Part shown: in pieces, positions 38,562-64,000 of the stretch
Layout of the letters: each line of letters begins with the position of its first letter
Numbering within the stretch: the first letter of the stretch is position 1
From: TPA_inf: Saccharomyces
Lineage: Eukaryota
DNA length: 64,000 nt
NCBI GenBank assembly: GCA_000146045.2
Contig: BK006939.2
Coordinates: 512,875-576,874 of the forward strand
Direction: 5' to 3'
Made by a program: the position numbers and the translations under genes
Notes under the pieces: model-generated
Told to the model about the DNA's origin: nothing
Seen by the model: the letters and a program-made list of their open reading frames with translations, nothing else
Database searches by the model: none

Positions 38562-38899
38562 TGTAGATGATGAAATGAAACTCTAGAATATCATCCATTT
38601 AGTAGCATTCTTGCTGCTGGTATAGTATCATATGAGATCTAGGAAGATGAAATGAAGCTTGAGAAAGAGTTAGCAAGTTTAATGGAAGCTGAAATGCAAG
38701 AATTGATAATGTAATGGGAAAATGAAGCATATAAAACGATAGGAAAAATAATCGTAATATTATTGTATGCAAATACCGATTAAATTTGAGGATCCCTATA
38801 CCCTTGAGGAGAAGTTCTAGTATGTTCTGTATACATAGTATTGAAGCCTCTATCAACAATGGAATCCCGATAATTATCACAAAATTCACACAAACCTCA
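38562..38899 (+). mobile_element. solo LTR of Ty1/Ty2/Ty4 (delta/tau) type, about 338 bp, roughly 78 bp upstream of the tRNA-Ile 5' end
   Basis: Aligns with the delta consensus: TGT.GA..AGAAAT start, GGAAGCTGAAA.GCAAG, GAGGAGAA.TTCTAGTAT, AATGGAATCCC, ending ...CCTCA. Confidence 0.75.
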
Positions 38900-39089: not shown

Positions 39090-39375
39090 GAGCATCATTC
39101 TCAGATTCAGTTGAAAGTTGCTGACGATTTTCAGGGGTCCCATTTCTAGTAAAACGACATTAGACATATACTAGAAGTTCTCCTCAAAAGATACAGGAAT
39201 CAATAAAAGAGAATCGGCAATTCTAAATAGCATATTATTATTACTTCTTTTGCTTTGTAAGTTGTAATTTACAATCCTATTACATTATCGTTTCTTGATT
39301 TCAACTTCCATTAGATTTGATTATGACTGCCATCATTTTGGGTCACCGTACGTGAACATTGGTTTGCAACAGGAA
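39090..39375 (-). mobile_element. second, degenerate delta-like LTR fragment in inverted orientation
   Basis: Plus strand carries tatactagaagttctcctc and atcctattacattatc ... cttccattagatttga, which are reverse complements of delta-internal motifs. Confidence 0.55.
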
Positions 39376-49751: not shown

Positions 49752-52728
49752 GATACTGTTTACAGAACTCGATCATATACTAGAACCTTTGACTTCGGTA
49801 ATCAGCCCGCATCCTATGCTTTCATTTCCTTGGCGTATGTTACTGACTAGTTTCCTGGCTTAAAATAGGAGAATTCATCCTCTTAGTTATTTTCTTGGTG
49901 GACCACGTGCCTTGCTTAAAGCAGGGCGCTGCCGTTGTTGCAACAGCATTTTCAGACTTTCCTTTAGGTAAAAAAGGTCAACCAATAATTTTATTTTATT
50001 TCTGATGATGGTTGCGCGTTCCAAGAAAATCAAAACCTTGGGCCTCATCCTCTTCTAAGACGTATAATGCAATCAAGAAACCCTTCCCAAAACCTAATAA
50101 AGGCTTGTTATTAGTTTCAAATTCAGGCAGAACTCGACTTGGATCTTTTAAACTTTTAAAGTCGTAGAAAATAGGTGCATAATTAGCTAAAACAGAAGAG
50201 ACTCACCATTTGAATTATATAACTTTATTAATTCGAGTAAAACATCCATCAGGTATAGCGTGTTGCGGAAAGACTTTTTTTACTCTTATTGTAACAAATA
50301 TGTGTTACAATTTACCTGTAACCTTGTTCTGTATAAAATTTTCTCTCGTTGTCATATGCCAATCTTTATATAATTAATAGAAATTTAGGAGGAACACAAG
50401 AAGAGGGGTAGATCCCGACAAGCCTTAACATACAGACGTAAAATTACTCGCAAATTTGCGAACCACTTGGTCAGGTGCGGTACGTAAAACGAAGATTTGT
50501 ACAATAAAAATATTGTTGGTTTAGCTAGATTATATTCTCCGATGATTTTTTAACTTCGATTTCCATCAAATTTTATATTAGACAGTAATGGAGTTTCAAT
50601 TTCGAAGTCACTTCACTTGAAGCTGAATTATACTAAAAAAATTTTCTTTTACTTGATTTATTGCTCTGCAGTGTCTGATAGTGTAATGGCGGATAATGCA
50701 AAGAAGAGTAAAGGGAAGATATTTTATTTCTTTGATTATACAAAATTTTTAACTTGTATGTGATCCCTGTCTTTAATATCGTTTCATTATACAAACTAAC
50801 TACAGAAATAGCTAAATGAGTGATTACTGTGCCATCATTTTGACTTCAAAGATCATCTATATCTTGATATAACATCTACCTGTCGAAAGTAAGATCATCC
50901 CTTTGCGGGCATGTAAGGTGTAAGATATAAGAACAAACAATTGCTAGAAAATAGCTTTGAATGAATGTTAAAAGGGACTGAACTTAGAAGTGTGCGATTT
51001 TCTGTTTTCAAAATTTGCCCAAAGCGCTTCTTTTCTTTTTAAGAATTGTATAGATGTAATTATTTAACGGATGTCTGACATTATTGAACCTTCCTAACTC
51101 CACAAAAATAACCAACGGGACCTCTACCTTACTAAACCACTTCCCGCCCCATTAACTAACCAGCATAACCTAGACAATACAAGGAAATGTACTTCGAAAT
51201 TTTAAGGTAAACGCAATTCTTGTCACAATATAAAGCTCTCACTGTGCTCATACACTGCTTCGATAATAAAAACCAAATGGTTTCTACTAAAACATAGCAA
51301 GCCTCACAAGATATAGAGATCACACACCATTGAAAAAGAAAGTTCAGCAAGTTTGCTGGAGGTTGCAAAGAGACTAACGAAGGGCTTTCATAACGACATT
51401 TTACAGTTATTGATAAAAGAATGCTTTTACGACAGCAGAACCTATTGGTTTGAAGAAGATAGAGGTCTAGTAGTATATTGTTGCTTTAATGATTCAAACT
51501 CTTAACAATGTGGGCAAATATGCGTATGATTTCGTTCTGGGAAAGGATAGTAAGAAGCCTTTTTGATTACAAAACCGTGAAAGACGGTTTAGCAGCTTTT
51601 ACAGGAAACCTGCTTTACCTTAGCCAGTGTTTTCTCATCTTCAAAAAAAAGTATTGTACGCAACTCTTCCATCTAGCAGAGCTCCCGCTCTTTTTCAAAC
51701 AAGTTTCATTATATTTATTCTTAATAATTTTGGTATCATCGAGGTGAGGTCTTCGTTGTTTCAACACCAGCTATTTTTCAGCGGCTTACAATTACGTAGT
51801 TCTATTAACGAATACACTGGGAGGTGAGTATAATCATGGACTGTAACACTATACGACTCCAACACGTTATATGTATCAGTTATATATATATATTATATTA
51901 TTTTGGGAAGAGTAGCATTGCTTTTGAAAGTACACGGGGTTTACTTTGGCTCATAGAATGGGTCTGGATATGAAATTCTGAAATATTCAGATTTTGGAGT
52001 ACTGAAAATATTTAGCAAGAATTTCAAATATTAGTTAGTAAACCAAACCAAGGCATCTGAACTTGAACCTCCATAACTCGCTTTCTAACATAATGAGCTT
52101 GTATGACATAATATTATAGAACTCGAGGTTAACCTTTAAATATAAATATAGTAATCTTCATGATAATAATTTCAGGGTAGTGCGCGTATTTGTCGAAAAA
52201 ACGCAAAATGACAGAAATTCTATGTTTACTGACTTTAGATTTTGTTTTAGATCAATTGGCGGAAAAAGGACGCAGTCTGTAACTTTGATTGGCATCTTGA
52301 TTTGATTTGTTGGGTGGTTCTCTTACAATCAATGGTTTATTTCATGGAAAGCTTGATGACATGTGATAGCACACCATGCTAATTAGTGAAAAGAGTCCTT
52401 GTTGACTTACCACATGTGCAGCCGCCTTTTACCGTGGTGCGAAGCATATTGAGCGGCCTGGAGACCAAGAATGTCAGGGCCTTTAAACAATAGAAGAAGT
52501 GTATAGGAAAAAACTAAGGTGTTTTGAGATATTTTTTATAAAAGTAGTATTTCTTAAAAATCAGCGGGGAGCCATTCTTTGAAGGCGCGCTTGCAAATTT
52601 TAGGTATTGGGCTTGATTATTTTGGCAAGTGTCATGCATTGTAACAAATCTATATAAAGTGACAATTCTGGAACACTGTATCGTAATCCCAAATAATGTA
52701 TGTAGAATAGAAAAAAATATATGAAAAA

Positions 52729-53781
52729 ATGAATAGATCATACACAGACGACATGAATAGCAGCCCTCCAAATTACTTGACAACAAGGACGTTTAGAATC
52801 GTTAGATTGTTTGCAATAATTTTTGCACTGCTTTTGGTAGCGTACTCATTATTTTTAAGCACACTTAGAACTGGAGCTATACCTGACCGCGCCAACACTG
52901 CTGCTCTAGTACGGCGAGCTAGGTGATCATTTGCGACTGGATTAGGACTAGGAGGATTTTTAATTGCTGCAGCCGCTTATGCTACTCCTTACTGGGTCGC
53001 AGCAACCTGTATCGCATCCACTAGCGGAATATGTTCACCTATAGCTGGTGCTGTTTTAGCAACTTCAGCAGTTATAGTTGCAGCAGTTTTAGTGGGAAAG
53101 AGTTCTGGCTCAGCAACAAAGCGAGGGTTAAGTGAGACTATTAATGTACTGAATCATACTATAACACTCACTGATCATGTGCTCAATGGGCAAACATTGT
53201 CTAATGGTACTGGTAGTAATTTTGTTACAATAGAGTTTAGTGGGTATGCAGTACATGACACTATTAAACGTGACGGTGCTGCTGAGATCAACTTTGTGGG
53301 GTATACTACGGAGCATGGAACCCACATCAGCACGAGTAGCGTACATAATGTGAGCATGCTCATCGATCAAATCGTGGCAGCGGTACCAGGGGTACCTGAT
53401 ATAAGTGGCAACGCTTCGGCCCTATCGTTACAGAGACGCAGTCAAGAGTTCGCCACCTCATGGATATCAATGACATATAGTCAGAGTTATGGTGACCTGG
53501 CACAGAACTGGCAGAATGACGAAGGTGGAGCAGGAAATTTTGATTCTTATGCTGAAGAGAAGTTACAGAATTTCTTTTCAGGTAATAGGGATTGGAAATA
53601 CTGCTTTGCTGCTGAGGACACGAAAAACGGTGAGCCACTTGATTACGATGACATACCTGGTGACGGTGCAGGCACGGGTTCGGCATTCAAGTCTGAGATA
53701 TATTTTAACACTTACGGTGGTATAGATAATTATTGTAATGACGAGCATATCGGTGCTCAGAACACTGGAGATGGTCGATAA
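52729..53781 (+). pseudogene. KHS1 killer-toxin-like locus: a 351-codon frame opened by ATG at 52729 and interrupted by a single in-frame TGA (52924-52926); the annotated remnant YER187W is 53356-53781
   Basis: Frame 1 runs uninterrupted from ATG 52729 to TAA 53781 except for one TGA; the translated segment after the TGA is hydrophobic ([45 protein letters not shown]); the C-terminal 141 aa equals YER187W. Confidence 0.6.
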
Positions 53782-53825
53782 AGCTTTACGCCTGTCGCTG
53801 AATTGACTGACCCGAAATTAAGAAC

Positions 53826-54076
53826 TGTTGACGTAGTGAATTACGATCTAGTTTATATGTCATAATGTAGTAAGTTTATTGGACCCTTCTATATGTTATG
53901 TAAATGTAATAATTACATAGTTACTGCTTTTGTACATAGAAACTATAGTTTCTTAAGTACTACCGGATTAGAGGTTTGCTACTATATGTTTTCCTTGTCT
54001 CAAGCATTACTGAAACAACTCTGAAACAATACTAAAACATTACTCATATCATGCTTTTGGGTTACCACATTCAACA
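53826..54076 (-). mobile_element. Ty5-type solo LTR, 251 bp, inverted orientation (TGTTG...CAACA termini)
   Basis: Plus strand begins tgttgacgtagtgaattacgatctag and ends ccacattcaaca, the reverse complement of a TGTTGAATGTGGTAACCCAAAAGCATG...CACTACGTCAACA element; 251 bp; flanks agaac/ataac. Confidence 0.65.
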
Positions 54077-55165
54077 ATAACTCGAATACATTTATAAAAA
54101 AAACAAAACTAAGGTACAAAACACACACCACACCACATACGCGCTGATTGGTTTTATGGAAGCTAATAGTTCAGACATAGCTCAGAAAAATAATAATAAG
54201 TATTATCAAATATAACTCATCTGGTTACATGCTAAGTTCTTGTCAAGTGATATAGCGTTATCTTTATTATTGAATTAAATTCTATAATTAGAATTCGACT
54301 ACACCAACTAATGACTCTAAAAAATATGTGATTGCCCTTCAAGATTGCATTATTTCTCAATGCATTACATACATAGAGTATACTAGATACAGATAGATGA
54401 TTGTAAGTGTTGGAACAAGATTCAATTATCATCCTATTTATTGCGATAGACGCACTACTTGAGAGTGATATACTTACTTATGCTACTGCATTCAAAGAGT
54501 ACCACTAAACAATCTCAACAGAATCAATCAGACTTTTTTTTGCCACAAAAACTTTTAACGATGTCCTTTGGCAGTACTGTATTTTGAGATTAAAGGCGTT
54601 CAGTCAATAAAAAATCTAAATTCTTGTTCATTTTCAGTTCTGGTATTTTTTTCATATTAATGATGGGGTGGCTCTGGAGGCTCATTTTTCCCACTGAAGA
54701 TCGCTGGTAATTTCGTTCGTATGTTTTAAAGAGAACTATATCCTGTCGCCAATTATGTGCAGTTGATGAGAAAACTAAGATAGAAATAAGTAGGGATGGA
54801 ACCAGGATCCACAAGAAGCGCGTTTAGCCGATCCGGCTTATCAGGTACGAGAAGCAGTATTATTAAGTAAGAAAGCGCGCAGGAAAGCGGCCTTTTGAAA
54901 GCACGTCTGCAGACATCTCACGACACATTCCCAAATAGGGCCCTGCTAAAAAAAAAGCAGCAGAGCGTACGTTGCCTGGGAAGCATGGTTTAGCGTGTTG
55001 CTATATTATGGTAAGGGGGGTGGTCAGTATACGTTGTGCTGACTGCCAGAGAATATCCTTATTCACAATTATTTGTTGAGTTTGATACTTATTTACAGAG
55101 ACTATATATAATGACACTTTTGGAATACAGTATCGCTACTCAATATCATAAAAAAAGTAACAATA

Positions 55166-55885
55166 ATGATGCCTACCTACCTAGGAAAGTTAACGTGGTC
55201 ATACTTTTTTACCACTTTAGGACTAGCTTGTGCTTACAACGTAACAGAACAAATGGAATTTGATCAGTTCAAATCAGATTACCTTGCCTGTCTCGCACCA
55301 GAACACAGAAACATTGTAGTCGATTTGGCTAGTAATGGATTCATAACAATTTCACCGATGGCGAATGCAACAATTGACTTTGAGGATGTAACTAGTGATT
55401 ATTTTAACTGCACTGACGTCAATACTAACGTACAGGTTACGATCGCGTCATTTTACAATGAATACGGTTTTGGGCCCGATGATAACGGCTATTATCACGC
55501 TATGGAAGAACCCTCAGAATTTGAACGGCATGACATGGATGTTAGGCTCTACAGACCATACTATCCAGGTGAGTTTGTCATGGGAAGACGTTCAGATGCA
55601 CTTGGAGTGACTGGTTTTGACCAAAAGGACTGCGCAGGTGAGGGTTTTTACGACGAACAAACTGCAGCAACGTCATGTCAAAATATAGGCTCCACTCAGT
55701 ACGCCAAGTCGGTCAGGTCTTATAACTATGGATGCTGCGGCGGGGCGGTCTGGATCAGGATTTGGCCGCATCACAATTGTTCAAAAGGTCATGATCACCA
55801 TTTCAAGATAAGGCCAGGCCAGATGCTATGCTGGAATGTCAACCCATATTCTTGGATGCAACCAGAATCCGGATGGAATCCGTAA
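55166..55885 (+). CDS. secreted-type Cys/Trp/Tyr-rich subtelomeric protein with N-terminal signal peptide, 239 aa (YER188W)
   Basis: ATG ORF of 239 aa; hydrophobic N-terminus MMPTYLGKLTWSYFFTTLGLACA; several N-x-S/T sites; about 10 Cys. Confidence 0.7.
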   Translation: MMPTYLGKLTWSYFFTTLGLACAYNVTEQMEFDQFKSDYLACLAPEHRNIVVDLASNGFITISPMANATIDFEDVTSDYFNCTDVNTNVQVTIASFYNEYGFGPDDNGYYHAMEEPSEFERHDMDVRLYRPYYPGEFVMGRRSDALGVTGFDQKDCAGEGFYDEQTAATSCQNIGSTQYAKSVRSYNYGCCGGAVWIRIWPHHNCSKGHDHHFKIRPGQMLCWNVNPYSWMQPESGWNP

Positions 55886-55916
55886 CGAATAGGATTCTGG
55901 ACATACGTTAGGTTCT

Positions 55917-56149
55917 TGTCGAATGTGATAACCCAAAAGCATGGTACAAGTGATGCTTCTTTTTTGTGTCGGTAATACACAAGGAGAACATATAGTGATA
56001 AACCTCTAACCCACTATTACTTAAGAAACCCTAGTTTCTATGCACAAAAGTAGAACCCTATATATCTTATATTTGTATTACATATATAAATGTCCAGTAA
56101 ACTTACCACATTATGACATATAAGCTAGATCGTAATTCACTACGTCAAA
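55917..56149 (+). mobile_element. Ty5-type solo LTR (about 233 bp, slightly deleted), direct orientation; inverted partner of 53826-54076
   Basis: tgtcgaatgtgataacccaaaagcatg ... cattatgacatataagctagatcgtaattcactacgtcaaaa; its reverse complement aligns along the full length with the 53826-54076 copy. Confidence 0.65.
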
Positions 56150-56762
56150 ATTACATTATGGGAGTGAAAGTATAATGGAGCACCCGTGTGAGTATGTGCT
56201 TGTTGACGTTAACGAGGATGAACAAACGACAAATAGATTCGACGTATTGAAGTACTTCTTGGCCACTTTTCATCTTCTGACGCGGTGAGCTTTTAAGAGC
56301 CCTTCTTTTTCGACTGGCCACGTGAGAAGACATACAGTTCAGCTTACATAGCTTTGGCCCATACAATACCTATGTGCCCCAAACCGCAGAGACGATTAGC
56401 ACACCTTTTTACCTGCACCACAGTCATTTCTCGATAATGGTGAAAACACAGTGATACCACCGCACAGCAAAGGTGCTGCCAATGGACTTGAAATATTTTA
56501 TGGAGTGCGAATAAAAAAATGCTCATGGACTCGAATATGAGATGCAAAGCCACCCTGTGCAAAATGGTTATCCTTGTGGGAGAGTGTTACGACAGTGATG
56601 TGGCATATTATTCTAATGTATGGTCTGTGTAAGTACGAAATATTCTGAAATGGCATCCGTTCAAGCAATGGTAATATTAAGGAACTTATACGTTAATGAC
56701 GTCATGGTGGTATTGATACGTAATTGAGTGTGTTTATGTATTATCGTTGAAGGATAGAATAT

Positions 56763-56773
56763 TTTTATGTTTA
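56763..56773 (+). promoter_or_regulatory. ARS consensus sequence (ACS) TTTTATGTTTA, an 11/11 match to WTTTAYRTTTW
   Basis: Direct read at 56763-56773. Confidence 0.6.
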
Positions 56774-56981
56774 GGTGATTTTAGTGGTGATTTTTTTGTA
56801 ATATTGACATAAGTGTATATAAATTGAGTGGATAGTAGATGGTGAAAAAGTGGTATAACGTATGTATTAAGGGCAGTTATACAATATTTGGGGCCGCCGA
56901 ATGAGATATAGATATTAAAATGTGGATAATCGTGGGCTTTATGGGTAAATGGCACAGGGTATAAACCGCTGAGGCAAGTGC

Positions 56982-56994
56982 CGTGCATAATGAT
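56982..56994 (-). promoter_or_regulatory. Abf1 site ATCATTATGCACG (RTCRYN5ACG)
   Basis: Plus strand reads cgtgcataatgat; its reverse complement matches the Abf1 consensus. Confidence 0.5.
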
Positions 56995-57199
56995 GTGAGT
57001 GCATTTGTACTGATTTAGTGAGAGATGGGCCATGGAGTGGAATGTGAGAGTAGGGTAAGTTTGAGAGTGGTATACTGTAGTAGCATCCGTGTGCGTATGC
57101 CATATCAGTATACAAGTGAGGGTGAGTATGGCATGTGGTGGTGGGATTGGAGTGGTAGGGTAAGCACGTGTGTATTATTTACGATCATTTGTTAACGTT

Positions 57200-57470
57200 T
57201 CAATATGGTGGTAGAACAACAGTATAGTGAGTAGGACATGGTGGATGGTAGGGTAATGGTAGGGTAAGTGGTGGTGGAGTTGGATATGGGTAATTGGAGG
57301 GTAACGGTTATGGTGGACGGTGGGTTGGTGGTAGGAAGTAGAGGGATGGATGGTGGTTGGGGTGGTATGGTTGAATGGGACAGGGTAACGAGTGGACAGT
57401 AGGGTAATGGAGGGTAAGTTTGGAGACAGGTTGGCGAGGGTTAGATTAGGATAGCATATCTATGTCACCT
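57200..57470 (+). repeat. X-element subtelomeric repeats / internal G-rich tract with TAGGG(T/A)A-like units
   Basis: Repeated gtagggtaa, gagggtaa, ggttagattagg and GGTG-rich runs on the strand running 5'->3' toward the chromosome end. Confidence 0.6.
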
Positions 57471-58280
57471 TATTGCATGCTGGATGGTGTTAGACAAGGC
57501 CGTAGGGACATATAGCATCTAGGAAGTAACCTTGTACGAAAATAGGCAATATTTCCTGTTTGACGCAGATTTTAGCCCAAAGATCTAGCGTTAAGGAATT
57601 TTTTTATAGTGGGACATTGCAAACCAAGGAAGTAACTTGATACGTCGTTGGTGAATGGGTCTGTTTTCTTATTCGGCGGGGTAATACATTTTGAGGGAAG
57701 GTTGTCTGTCTGACGCGCCATATGTAGGTACGCCAAAAAGGGCTCCTTTACTTCGAAGCGCGAGGTCGTATACCTAATAAGGAAATGTAATTTATAACTT
57801 TTTATTATATTGGTCTTTTCGAGAGCGGAAGAAGTTGTAGGCTAAGCGCAGGCTAAGCGTAGGTCCATGTTTAAAGTATCCAAGAGAATATCCACGAAGC
57901 GGCTGAGCAACGAACAGAATCCTGGTTCTCCTCGACTAAGCAGATAGTTAAGATACTGTGCACCATGGAAATTGAAAACGAACGTACGTACCGACTACTT
58001 TATTTTTGCAGGCCGGAAATCAAGCGATGAATGAGACATCCTTCTGTTTTCTATGTTGTGCTTGAAGGGGACAGACAGTCGCTTATCTTAGTGAGATTTT
58101 GTTTGCTTTTGCTGCACCTGCATAGCGCAGATTCTGCATCTTCTCAATAGCTTAATTATTACATTCTTAGATGATGATAAGACGGAAACTGGAGAATCTT
58201 TTGTTTATATTGATGGATTTCTTGTCAAAAAGCATAACAATCAACATACTATTGTTAATTTCGAAACTTACAAAAATAAA

Positions 58281-58649
58281 ATGAAAGTTTCCGATAGGCG
58301 TAAGTTTGAAAAAGCAAACTTTGACGAGTTTGAGTCGGCTCTAAATAACAAAAACGACTTGGTACATTGTCCCTCAATAACTTTATTTGAATCGATCCCC
58401 ACGGAAGTGCGGTCATTCTACGAAGACGAAAAGTCTGGCCTAATCAAAGTGGTAAAATTCAGAACTGGTGCAATGGATAGGAAAAGGTCTTTTGAAAAAA
58501 TTGTCATTTCCGTCATGGTCGGGAAAAATGTACAAAAGTTCCTGACGTTTGTTGAAGACGAACCAGATTTCCAGGGCGGACCAATCCCTTCAAACAAACC
58601 ACGTGATGGTCTACACGTTGTTTCAAGTGCATACTTTGAAATTCAATAG
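58281..58649 (+). CDS. Y' element ORF1 fragment, 122 aa (YER189W); overlaps the YRF1-2 start in another frame
   Basis: ATG ORF of 122 aa immediately upstream of, and overlapping, the helicase ORF. Confidence 0.55.
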
Positions 58650-63651: not shown

Positions 63652-64000
63652 AGGAAATTGTTGTTACGAAAGTCAGTGATTATGTATTGTGTAGTATAGT
63701 ATATTGTAAGAAATTTTTTTTTCTAGGGAATATGCGTTTTGATGTAGTAGTATTTCACTGTTTTGATTTAGTGTTTGTTGCACGGCAGTAGCGAGAGACA
63801 AGTGGGAAAGAGTAGGATAAAAAGACAATCTATAAAAAGTAAACATAAAATAAAGGTAGTAAGTAGCTTTTGGTTGAACATCCGGGTAAGAGACAACAGG
63901 GCTTGGAGGAGACGTACATGAGGGCTATTTAGGGCTATTTAGGGCTATGTAGAAGTGCTGTAGGGCTAAAGAACAGGGTTTCATTTTCATTTTTTTTTTT

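Follow-up and report, generated by a model that had tools for sequence, protein, structure and literature searches.

Gene content of the locus

The window (the whole 64-kb stretch of DNA that was analyzed, with all positions counted from its first base) is the chromosome V right end of an S288C-type Saccharomyces cerevisiae genome and carries the genes YER187W and YER188W, two long terminal repeats (LTRs) of the retrotransposon Ty5 that bracket YER188W, and a subtelomeric X element. YER187W (53356–53781, forward strand) encodes a KHS1-like protein of the DUF5341 family (Pfam E-value 4.5e-37) and stops 45 bp short of the left LTR (53826–54076, minus strand). The unique segment between the LTRs (54082–55916, given on the forward strand) extends to the right LTR (55917–56150, plus strand) and holds YER188W (55166–55885, forward strand), whose product of 239 aa is a chromosomal homolog of the Kbarr-1 killer preprotoxin. 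According to the list of open reading frames, YER188W is the only sizeable ORF between the LTRs, and no recombinase is encoded there.

Close homologs of YER188W were detected in S. cerevisiae only, and the distant family recovered by homology search includes Kbarr-1, a relationship that has already been published. A profile search of PDB sequences with YER188W gave no match, a match to the Pfam family Crystall_3 remained below the cutoff (E-value 0.008), and the structure predicted from an alignment of 10 sequences (mean pLDDT 54, pTM 0.34) was too poor for a fold search.

The core X element starts at 56646 (feature given as 56646–57033, unstranded, with the boundary inferred from the junctions of two strain loci, L023 and L026, that are described below), on the distal side of both LTRs, approximately 0.5 kb away from the right one and 2.6 kb away from the left one. 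It includes a match to the ARS consensus (ACS), TTTTATGTTTA, located by an ACS scan at 56763–56773, and an X-element ORF of the DUF468 family on the minus strand (56734–57033; Pfam E-value 1.8e-57). A scan of positions 52000–58500 against Rfam yielded only sub-threshold chance matches. In the corresponding loci of other strains, the gene order is Zn-cluster factor, RTA1, DUF5341 (YER187W), YER188W, DUF468 X-element ORF and Y' helicase, and the region is reproduced with 100% identity to the window in several assemblies. The X element is a heterochromatin landmark that would explain why Ty5 landed here, silent chromatin being predicted from position; the LTRs adjoin it at this chromosome end, in line with the subtelomeric location that the sequence-only reading had considered typical of Ty5.

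Identity and state of the two Ty5 LTRs

The inverted repeat that had been read from the letters at 53826–54076 (251 bp) and 55917–56149 (233 bp) was recovered both by a repeat finder and by gapped alignment, with a blastn E-value of 6e-51 between the arms, which are reverse complements of each other. The repeat finder resolves three ungapped inverted blocks (53817–53922/56054–56159, 53924–53998/55979–56053 and 54023–54081/55912–55970) of 78–84% identity. Gapped global alignment of the left arm with the reverse complement of the right arm comprises 196 matches, 35 mismatches and 22 gap columns, and its score of 138 compares with 4.2 ± 5.7 (maximum 20.5) in 300 shuffles. The resulting identity of 84.8% over aligned bases reaches the lower edge of the 85–90% that had been estimated earlier, and drops to 77.5% when gaps are counted. 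The longest block of perfect identity between the arms is 24 bp. Homology between the arms stops at the LTR termini, outside of which the alignment decays to random on both sides, and no further copy of either arm is present in the 64-kb window.

Both arms are Ty5 LTRs, as had been proposed: they align to the 5' LTR of Ty5-1 (94.8% identity for the left and 84.0% for the right arm) and are identical to published entries. Specifically, in the alignment of all Ty5 LTRs of strain S288C by Carr, Bensasson and Bergman (2012; PMC3511429), the reverse complement of 53826–54076 is identical to chrV_s144-_TY5 (sacCer2 chrV:566695–566945), and 55917–56148 is identical to chrV_s145+_TY5 (sacCer2 chrV:568786–569017), the sacCer2 strings in the supplementary alignments agreeing with the window base for base. 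File S2 of that study scores s144 and s145 both as Solo, Inactive and Polymorphic, with presence of s144 in 10 of the 18 strains scored for it and of s145 in six of eight, and gives the SGD name YERWomega2 for s145 and n.a. for s144; according to the authors, the only two Ty5 inserts that are polymorphic are solo LTRs lying next to each other on opposite strands of chromosome V. SGD-style names such as YERComega1 returned no literature matches. Thus, the LTRs described here and those of Carr et al. are the same sequences at the same positions, without any difference, and the pair is ordinary and already known, its identity, solo status, opposite strands and polymorphism all having been published. 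Beyond that catalog, the present analysis adds the sequence of an empty site, the order in which the two insertions occurred and a test against inversion.

The two arms represent different states of preservation. The left LTR, which retains intact TGTTG...CAACA termini, aligns without gaps to the 5' LTR of YCLWTy5-1 (251 bp in both) and is 92–95% identical to LTRs of chromosomes III, VII and XI, versus 85% to the right LTR. In its U3 part, it contains two perfect heptamers of the pheromone-response element, TGAAACA, starting at 54011 and 54022 (54011–54028, forward strand), followed by a third, mutated element, TAAAACA; the RepBase TY5-LTR consensus has three TGTTTCA at the equivalent place, so that two of the three are retained. 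A pattern search of 53000–57200 found only these two TGAAACA and none in the right LTR, which lacks approximately 16–18 bp within the region bearing these elements. The right LTR (TGTCG...CAAAA) departs from the canonical form by one substitution at each terminus, starting with TGTCG and ending with ...CGTCAAAA, such that the TGTTG...CAACA termini that had been ascribed to both arms hold for the left arm only. Its 3' edge is uncertain by 1–2 bp, being placed at 56148 by Carr et al., at 56149 in the sequence-only reading and at 56150 in an indel-free alignment to the canonical ...CGTCAACA. The earlier statement that both lengths fit Ty5 holds fully for the 251 bp of the left arm, the same as in Ty5-1, and in decayed form for the right arm, at 232–234 bp. 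As a separate observation, the right LTR of strain locus L021, a short Logan contig, looks chimeric, with a 5' half that is s145-like and a 3' half that is canonical and ends in CAACA.

Comparison with complete elements places the pair in the context of the Ty5 family. YCLWTy5-1, at the left end of chromosome III, is the only Ty5 of S288C scored as full-length and itself carries internal deletions (PMC3511429). With this element and with the active Ty5 of S. paradoxus (RepBase TY5 consensus), the left arm shares its length of 251 bp and its termini; in contrast to them, the locus shows no internal gag-pol match (over the first 1.3 kb compared), and the right arm represents an LTR lineage of far greater divergence (84%). 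The first 1300 nt of the RepBase entry TY5-I, which starts with the PBS, had no match in the window better than an E-value of 0.24, and their local alignment to 56150–56730 scored 19 against a shuffle mean of 20.8. This lack of a match to the first 1.3 kb of Ty5 internal sequence argues that both arms are probably solo LTRs. A truncated element at the right LTR was considered and rejected: the flank ...ATTATGGGAG... vaguely resembles the Ty5 PBS GGTTATGAGCCC, but shuffled sequences align to TY5-I at least as well. With the strand labels set by the full-length element, the left LTR is on the minus and the right LTR on the plus strand, and their U3 ends face the YER188W segment; LTR-driven transcription would then run outward from this segment at both LTRs.

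Insertion history and alternative origins of the inverted arrangement

The history of the locus was examined in 31 strain loci, retrieved via variants of YER188W and via YER187W. Two of these, L009 (assembly GCA_029990535.1) and L020 (a Logan contig), come from a haplotype that is 6–8% diverged from the window and lack the left LTR; at its position, both read ...GAAATTA ATAAC TCGAAT..., with a single ATAAC, and thus display the unoccupied site directly. In the window, the left LTR is flanked by AGAAC on the outer side (53821–53825, unstranded) and ATAAC on the inner side (54077–54081, unstranded), exactly as first reported. The junction of AGAAC with the LTR is present in all 20 loci whose contig spans the outer junction and matches the search pattern, and that of the LTR with ATAAC in all 23 loci whose contig spans the inner one; loci L022 to L031 share the same left flank and left LTR. 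The inner copy matches the single ATAAC of the empty-site alleles, from which the outer copy is one substitution away. Because the empty-site alleles carry ATAAC, the outer AGAAC is a mutated copy of the ancestral ATAAC target, and the 4/5 target-site duplication suspected at the left LTR is genuine.

At the right LTR, the left junction reads GGTTCT|TGTCGAATGTG in all loci whose contigs extend to it, including the divergent L020 and L021. No target-site duplication is apparent (GTTCT upstream has at most 2/5 matches to AATTA, ATTAC or TTACA downstream) and no unoccupied site was found among the strain loci; the SGRP alignments in File S7 of Carr et al. consist almost entirely of N at this site. 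The missing duplication is compatible with age or with loss by recombination and leaves the sequence identity of the LTR unaffected; its sequence identity and the sharp boundaries of homology suggest that the right LTR, too, is a simple insertion. In L020, the left flank, the full middle segment and the right LTR are colinear with the window, the right junction is identical, and only the left LTR is absent. Since this divergent locus shares the junction of the right LTR with the window, that LTR must have been in place before the two haplotypes separated, and the left LTR is younger.

We are therefore highly confident that the locus contains two independent Ty5 insertions, now solo, beside the X element, and that neither an inversion nor flipping of the YER188W segment is involved. 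Under this scenario, Ty5 would have inserted twice into silent chromatin of the subtelomere, next to the X element, and each copy would later have been cut down to a solo LTR. The older insertion would be represented by the right LTR, with its strong divergence, its decayed termini and target duplication, and its occurrence in both deep haplotypes. The younger would be the left LTR, which would have entered the S288C-type haplotype and generated the 5-bp ATAAC duplication, one copy of which now reads AGAAC. Opposite orientation would be a 50% outcome for two independent insertions. The targeting by integrase and Sir4 and the formation of solo LTRs by LTR–LTR recombination are taken here from established Ty5 biology, the former, together with the pheromone-induced transcription of Ty5, having been reviewed (PMC7175516).

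The sequence-only reading had left two options for the inverted pair, independent insertions or the product of an inversion, and had further proposed that recombination between the arms could make the YER188W segment an invertible cassette. The first option stands; the second now appears highly improbable. An inversion by LTR–LTR recombination would have exchanged the flanking 5-mers, and the outer left flank AGAAC (53821–53825) is indeed the exact reverse complement of the inner right flank GTTCT (55912–55916), with the right LTR lacking a target duplication of its own. However, the reciprocal pair that such an exchange predicts is not found, ATAAC having only 3/5 matches to GTAAT, the reverse complement of ATTAC, and AGAAC derives from the ATAAC target by a single base change, so that we read the AGAAC/GTTCT complementarity as a coincidence that involves a derived base. 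Moreover, in L009 and L020, which never show the left LTR, the left flank and the middle segment are contiguous and colinear around a single ATAAC, and the right LTR junction of L020 is unchanged. Colinearity of an allele devoid of the left LTR with the window means that the arrangement did not arise from LTR–LTR inversion. Recombination between inverted Ty sequences inverts yeast DNA, and inverted repeats of approximately 250 bp do bracket a single ORF here; nevertheless, there is very little chance that the pair serves as a recombination-driven cassette that switches the orientation or expression of YER188W in populations. All 26 informative samples of the strain set, a small one that includes several S288C-derived laboratory strains, were observed to have the orientation of the window (0/26 flipped relative to either flank), which runs counter to the orientation polymorphism expected of such a cassette. 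No perfect match between the arms exceeds 24 bp, their overall identity is 85%, and diverged repeats in yeast reportedly recombine at rates orders of magnitude below those of identical repeats. Furthermore, the segment encodes no recombinase, and as the LTR promoters face away from it, a flip would provide the ORF with no different LTR promoter. The 2-micron FLP/FRT system and the bacterial Hin and Gin switches thus share with this locus only the geometry, that is, inverted repeats around a short coding segment, and differ from it in that this locus lacks a recombinase, has diverged repeats and is observed in a single orientation.

Two other origins of the pair can be weighed against the same observations. 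Reverse-transcribed sequences can be captured along with Ty cDNA, and the ancestry of YER188W is viral (a killer toxin), so the LTRs could be envisaged as the rearranged ends of one Ty5 that had either taken up the YER188W segment or been interrupted by it. We give this scheme hardly any credence: the LTRs are inverted rather than direct, they show 15% divergence although the two LTRs of a single element are identical at the outset, and YER188W is present in L009 and L020 without the left LTR. In addition, the YER188W-like gene of S. kudriavzevii resides at another subtelomere, with neither a Ty5 LTR nor DNA-level similarity at that locus. The initial view that the arms do not represent both ends of a single element is thereby confirmed. 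Least plausible, with a probability that we consider negligible, is an inverted segmental duplication of subtelomeric DNA that has nothing to do with transposon ends, a possibility that the sequence-only reading had raised in the form of a larger duplicated block. Duplicated blocks are abundant in subtelomeres, and the DNA distal to the right LTR, as exemplified by L012, exists in paralogous or mosaic versions in other strains. Yet arm homology ends exactly at the LTR termini, the left arm is far closer to the LTRs of chromosomes III, VII and XI (92–95%) than to its partner (85%), and it has both an empty site and a 5-bp duplication. The distal flank of L012 had also been tried as a breakpoint at the edge of the right LTR and was discarded, as it is actually a mosaic of identical and diverged patches.

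Chromosome-end exchange at the left LTR and its implications

Having placed two independent insertions at this chromosome end, we consider the only recombination activity that is visible at the locus, namely, exchange of the chromosome end via the left LTR. In strain loci L023 and L026, the left flank and the left LTR, which is complete, run straight into a paralogous core X element (junction ...TTCAACA|TGAAATG...) that is 95% and 90% identical, respectively, to that of the window; these loci lack YER188W together with the right LTR and the bulk of the right flank. The LTR of L026 equals s144 at canonical positions 84–251 and differs from it at positions 21, 73, 76 and 83 only. Because all four variant states are carried by chrXI_s283 and chrVII_st81, the LTR of L026 is a clean hybrid of two LTR types, as a crossover within it would leave. 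The left LTR would thus have undergone ectopic exchange with a Ty5 LTR of another chromosome end, whereby the distal DNA, including YER188W, would have been replaced by a foreign X element. In two further loci, L009 and L015, the distal part was lost at breakpoints within YER188W. Distal-loss events of these kinds account for the polymorphism of both LTRs (PMC3511429) and for the patchy distribution of YER188W, which was detected in only 78 strains of another survey (PMC12157680). The use of the left LTR as the exact junction in L023 and L026 is shared with the ectopic recombination between Ty elements or their LTRs (delta–delta and Ty–Ty) at yeast chromosome ends. In contrast to the translocations, deletions and inversions produced by delta–delta and Ty–Ty events, this locus shows replacement of the chromosome end and loss of YER188W, and no inversion.

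With respect to a possible function, a YER188w::lacZ fusion has been reported to show very weak induction by pheromone (- to +/-) (Erdman et al., 1998), and the TGAAACA elements of the left LTR are located 1.1 kb upstream of the YER188W start codon. It can be speculated, as a rather doubtful proposition taken as a whole, that the left LTR is a recurrent crossover point at which natural isolates exchange the entire right end of chromosome V and lose YER188W, L026 representing one such event, and that its Ste12-type elements may explain the faint induction of YER188w::lacZ. If true, a virus-derived, toxin-like gene would be linked to mating through an LTR enhancer.

The importance of the locus beyond housekeeping is small. 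An inverted LTR pair around a gene does not warrant interpretation as a switch without orientation polymorphism. The pair is a textbook case of Ty5 marking silent subtelomeric chromatin, with solo LTRs of different age side by side.

Chromosome-end replacement through the left LTR

In two natural-isolate assemblies (L023:5471-6373 and L026:5471-6232), a paralogous core X element directly adjoins the left Ty5 LTR (s144; window 53826-54076), and the entire YER188W segment is absent from both. Moreover, the left LTR of L026 is a clean hybrid, in which s144 sequence is joined to that of an s283/st81-type LTR, the class represented by other Ty5 LTRs of S288C. These features indicate that the chromosome end was replaced via the LTR.

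Repeats and possible exchange distal to YER188W

At the position of the right LTR (s145; window 55917-56149), one divergent short contig (L021:1493-1732) carries an LTR whose 5' half is s145-like and whose 3' half resembles canonical Ty5 LTRs, with an intact CAACA end that is followed by unrelated sequence (TTTTTCCTAACCGCCGCGCAGG). This LTR could be another hybrid or a gene conversion product. When the interval from the right LTR to core X (window 56150-56645) is compared with L012:10980-11440, the L012 allele proves to be a mosaic, in which window-identical stretches are broken by strongly diverged or deleted patches. This pattern is suggestive of recurrent gene conversion involving paralogous chromosome ends.

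Further along the window, X-type TG-rich repeats lie at ~57030-57420, and the last 200 bp (63801-64000) are of Y' type (GGGCTATTTAGGGCTATTTAGGGCTATG..., followed by a run of T); the window does not finish in TG1-3 telomeric repeats.

The LTR-free haplotype and Sir1-domain ORFs

In strain AQG_2a (L009:8661-8981 and L009:10001-11154), which has the haplotype that lacks the left LTR, a Ty1/Ty2 delta LTR is inserted ~70 bp into the middle segment, the unique DNA that lies between the two Ty5 LTRs in the window. Delta-like sequences, recognized by 73-80% identity to this insertion, are also present in the window at 38568-38878 and 39161-39321. Homology to the window stops at middle-segment position 1536, and beyond this point the YER188W frame of L009 is joined to sequence encoding a Sir1 ORC-binding domain (P0004; Pfam PF11603, E 7e-17). 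L012, L026, L027 and L030 have Sir1-domain ORFs too, on the distal side of the X element.

Killer preprotoxin homologues

The adjacent ORFs YER187W (window 53356-53781) and YER188W (55166-55885) are each chromosomal homologues of dsRNA-virus killer preprotoxins. These homologies are already in the literature, YER187W being reported as K66-like (PMC5618225 and PMC6213463, cited jointly for both ORFs). Kbarr-1, from the Torulaspora delbrueckii Mbarr-1 virus, is 45% identical to the C-terminal half of YER188W. YER188W is part of a small family, with members in Lachancea and S. kudriavzevii, whose ~230-aa proteins have a signal peptide, a PHHxC motif at the C terminus and, around residue 140, a conserved dibasic site (RR/KR).
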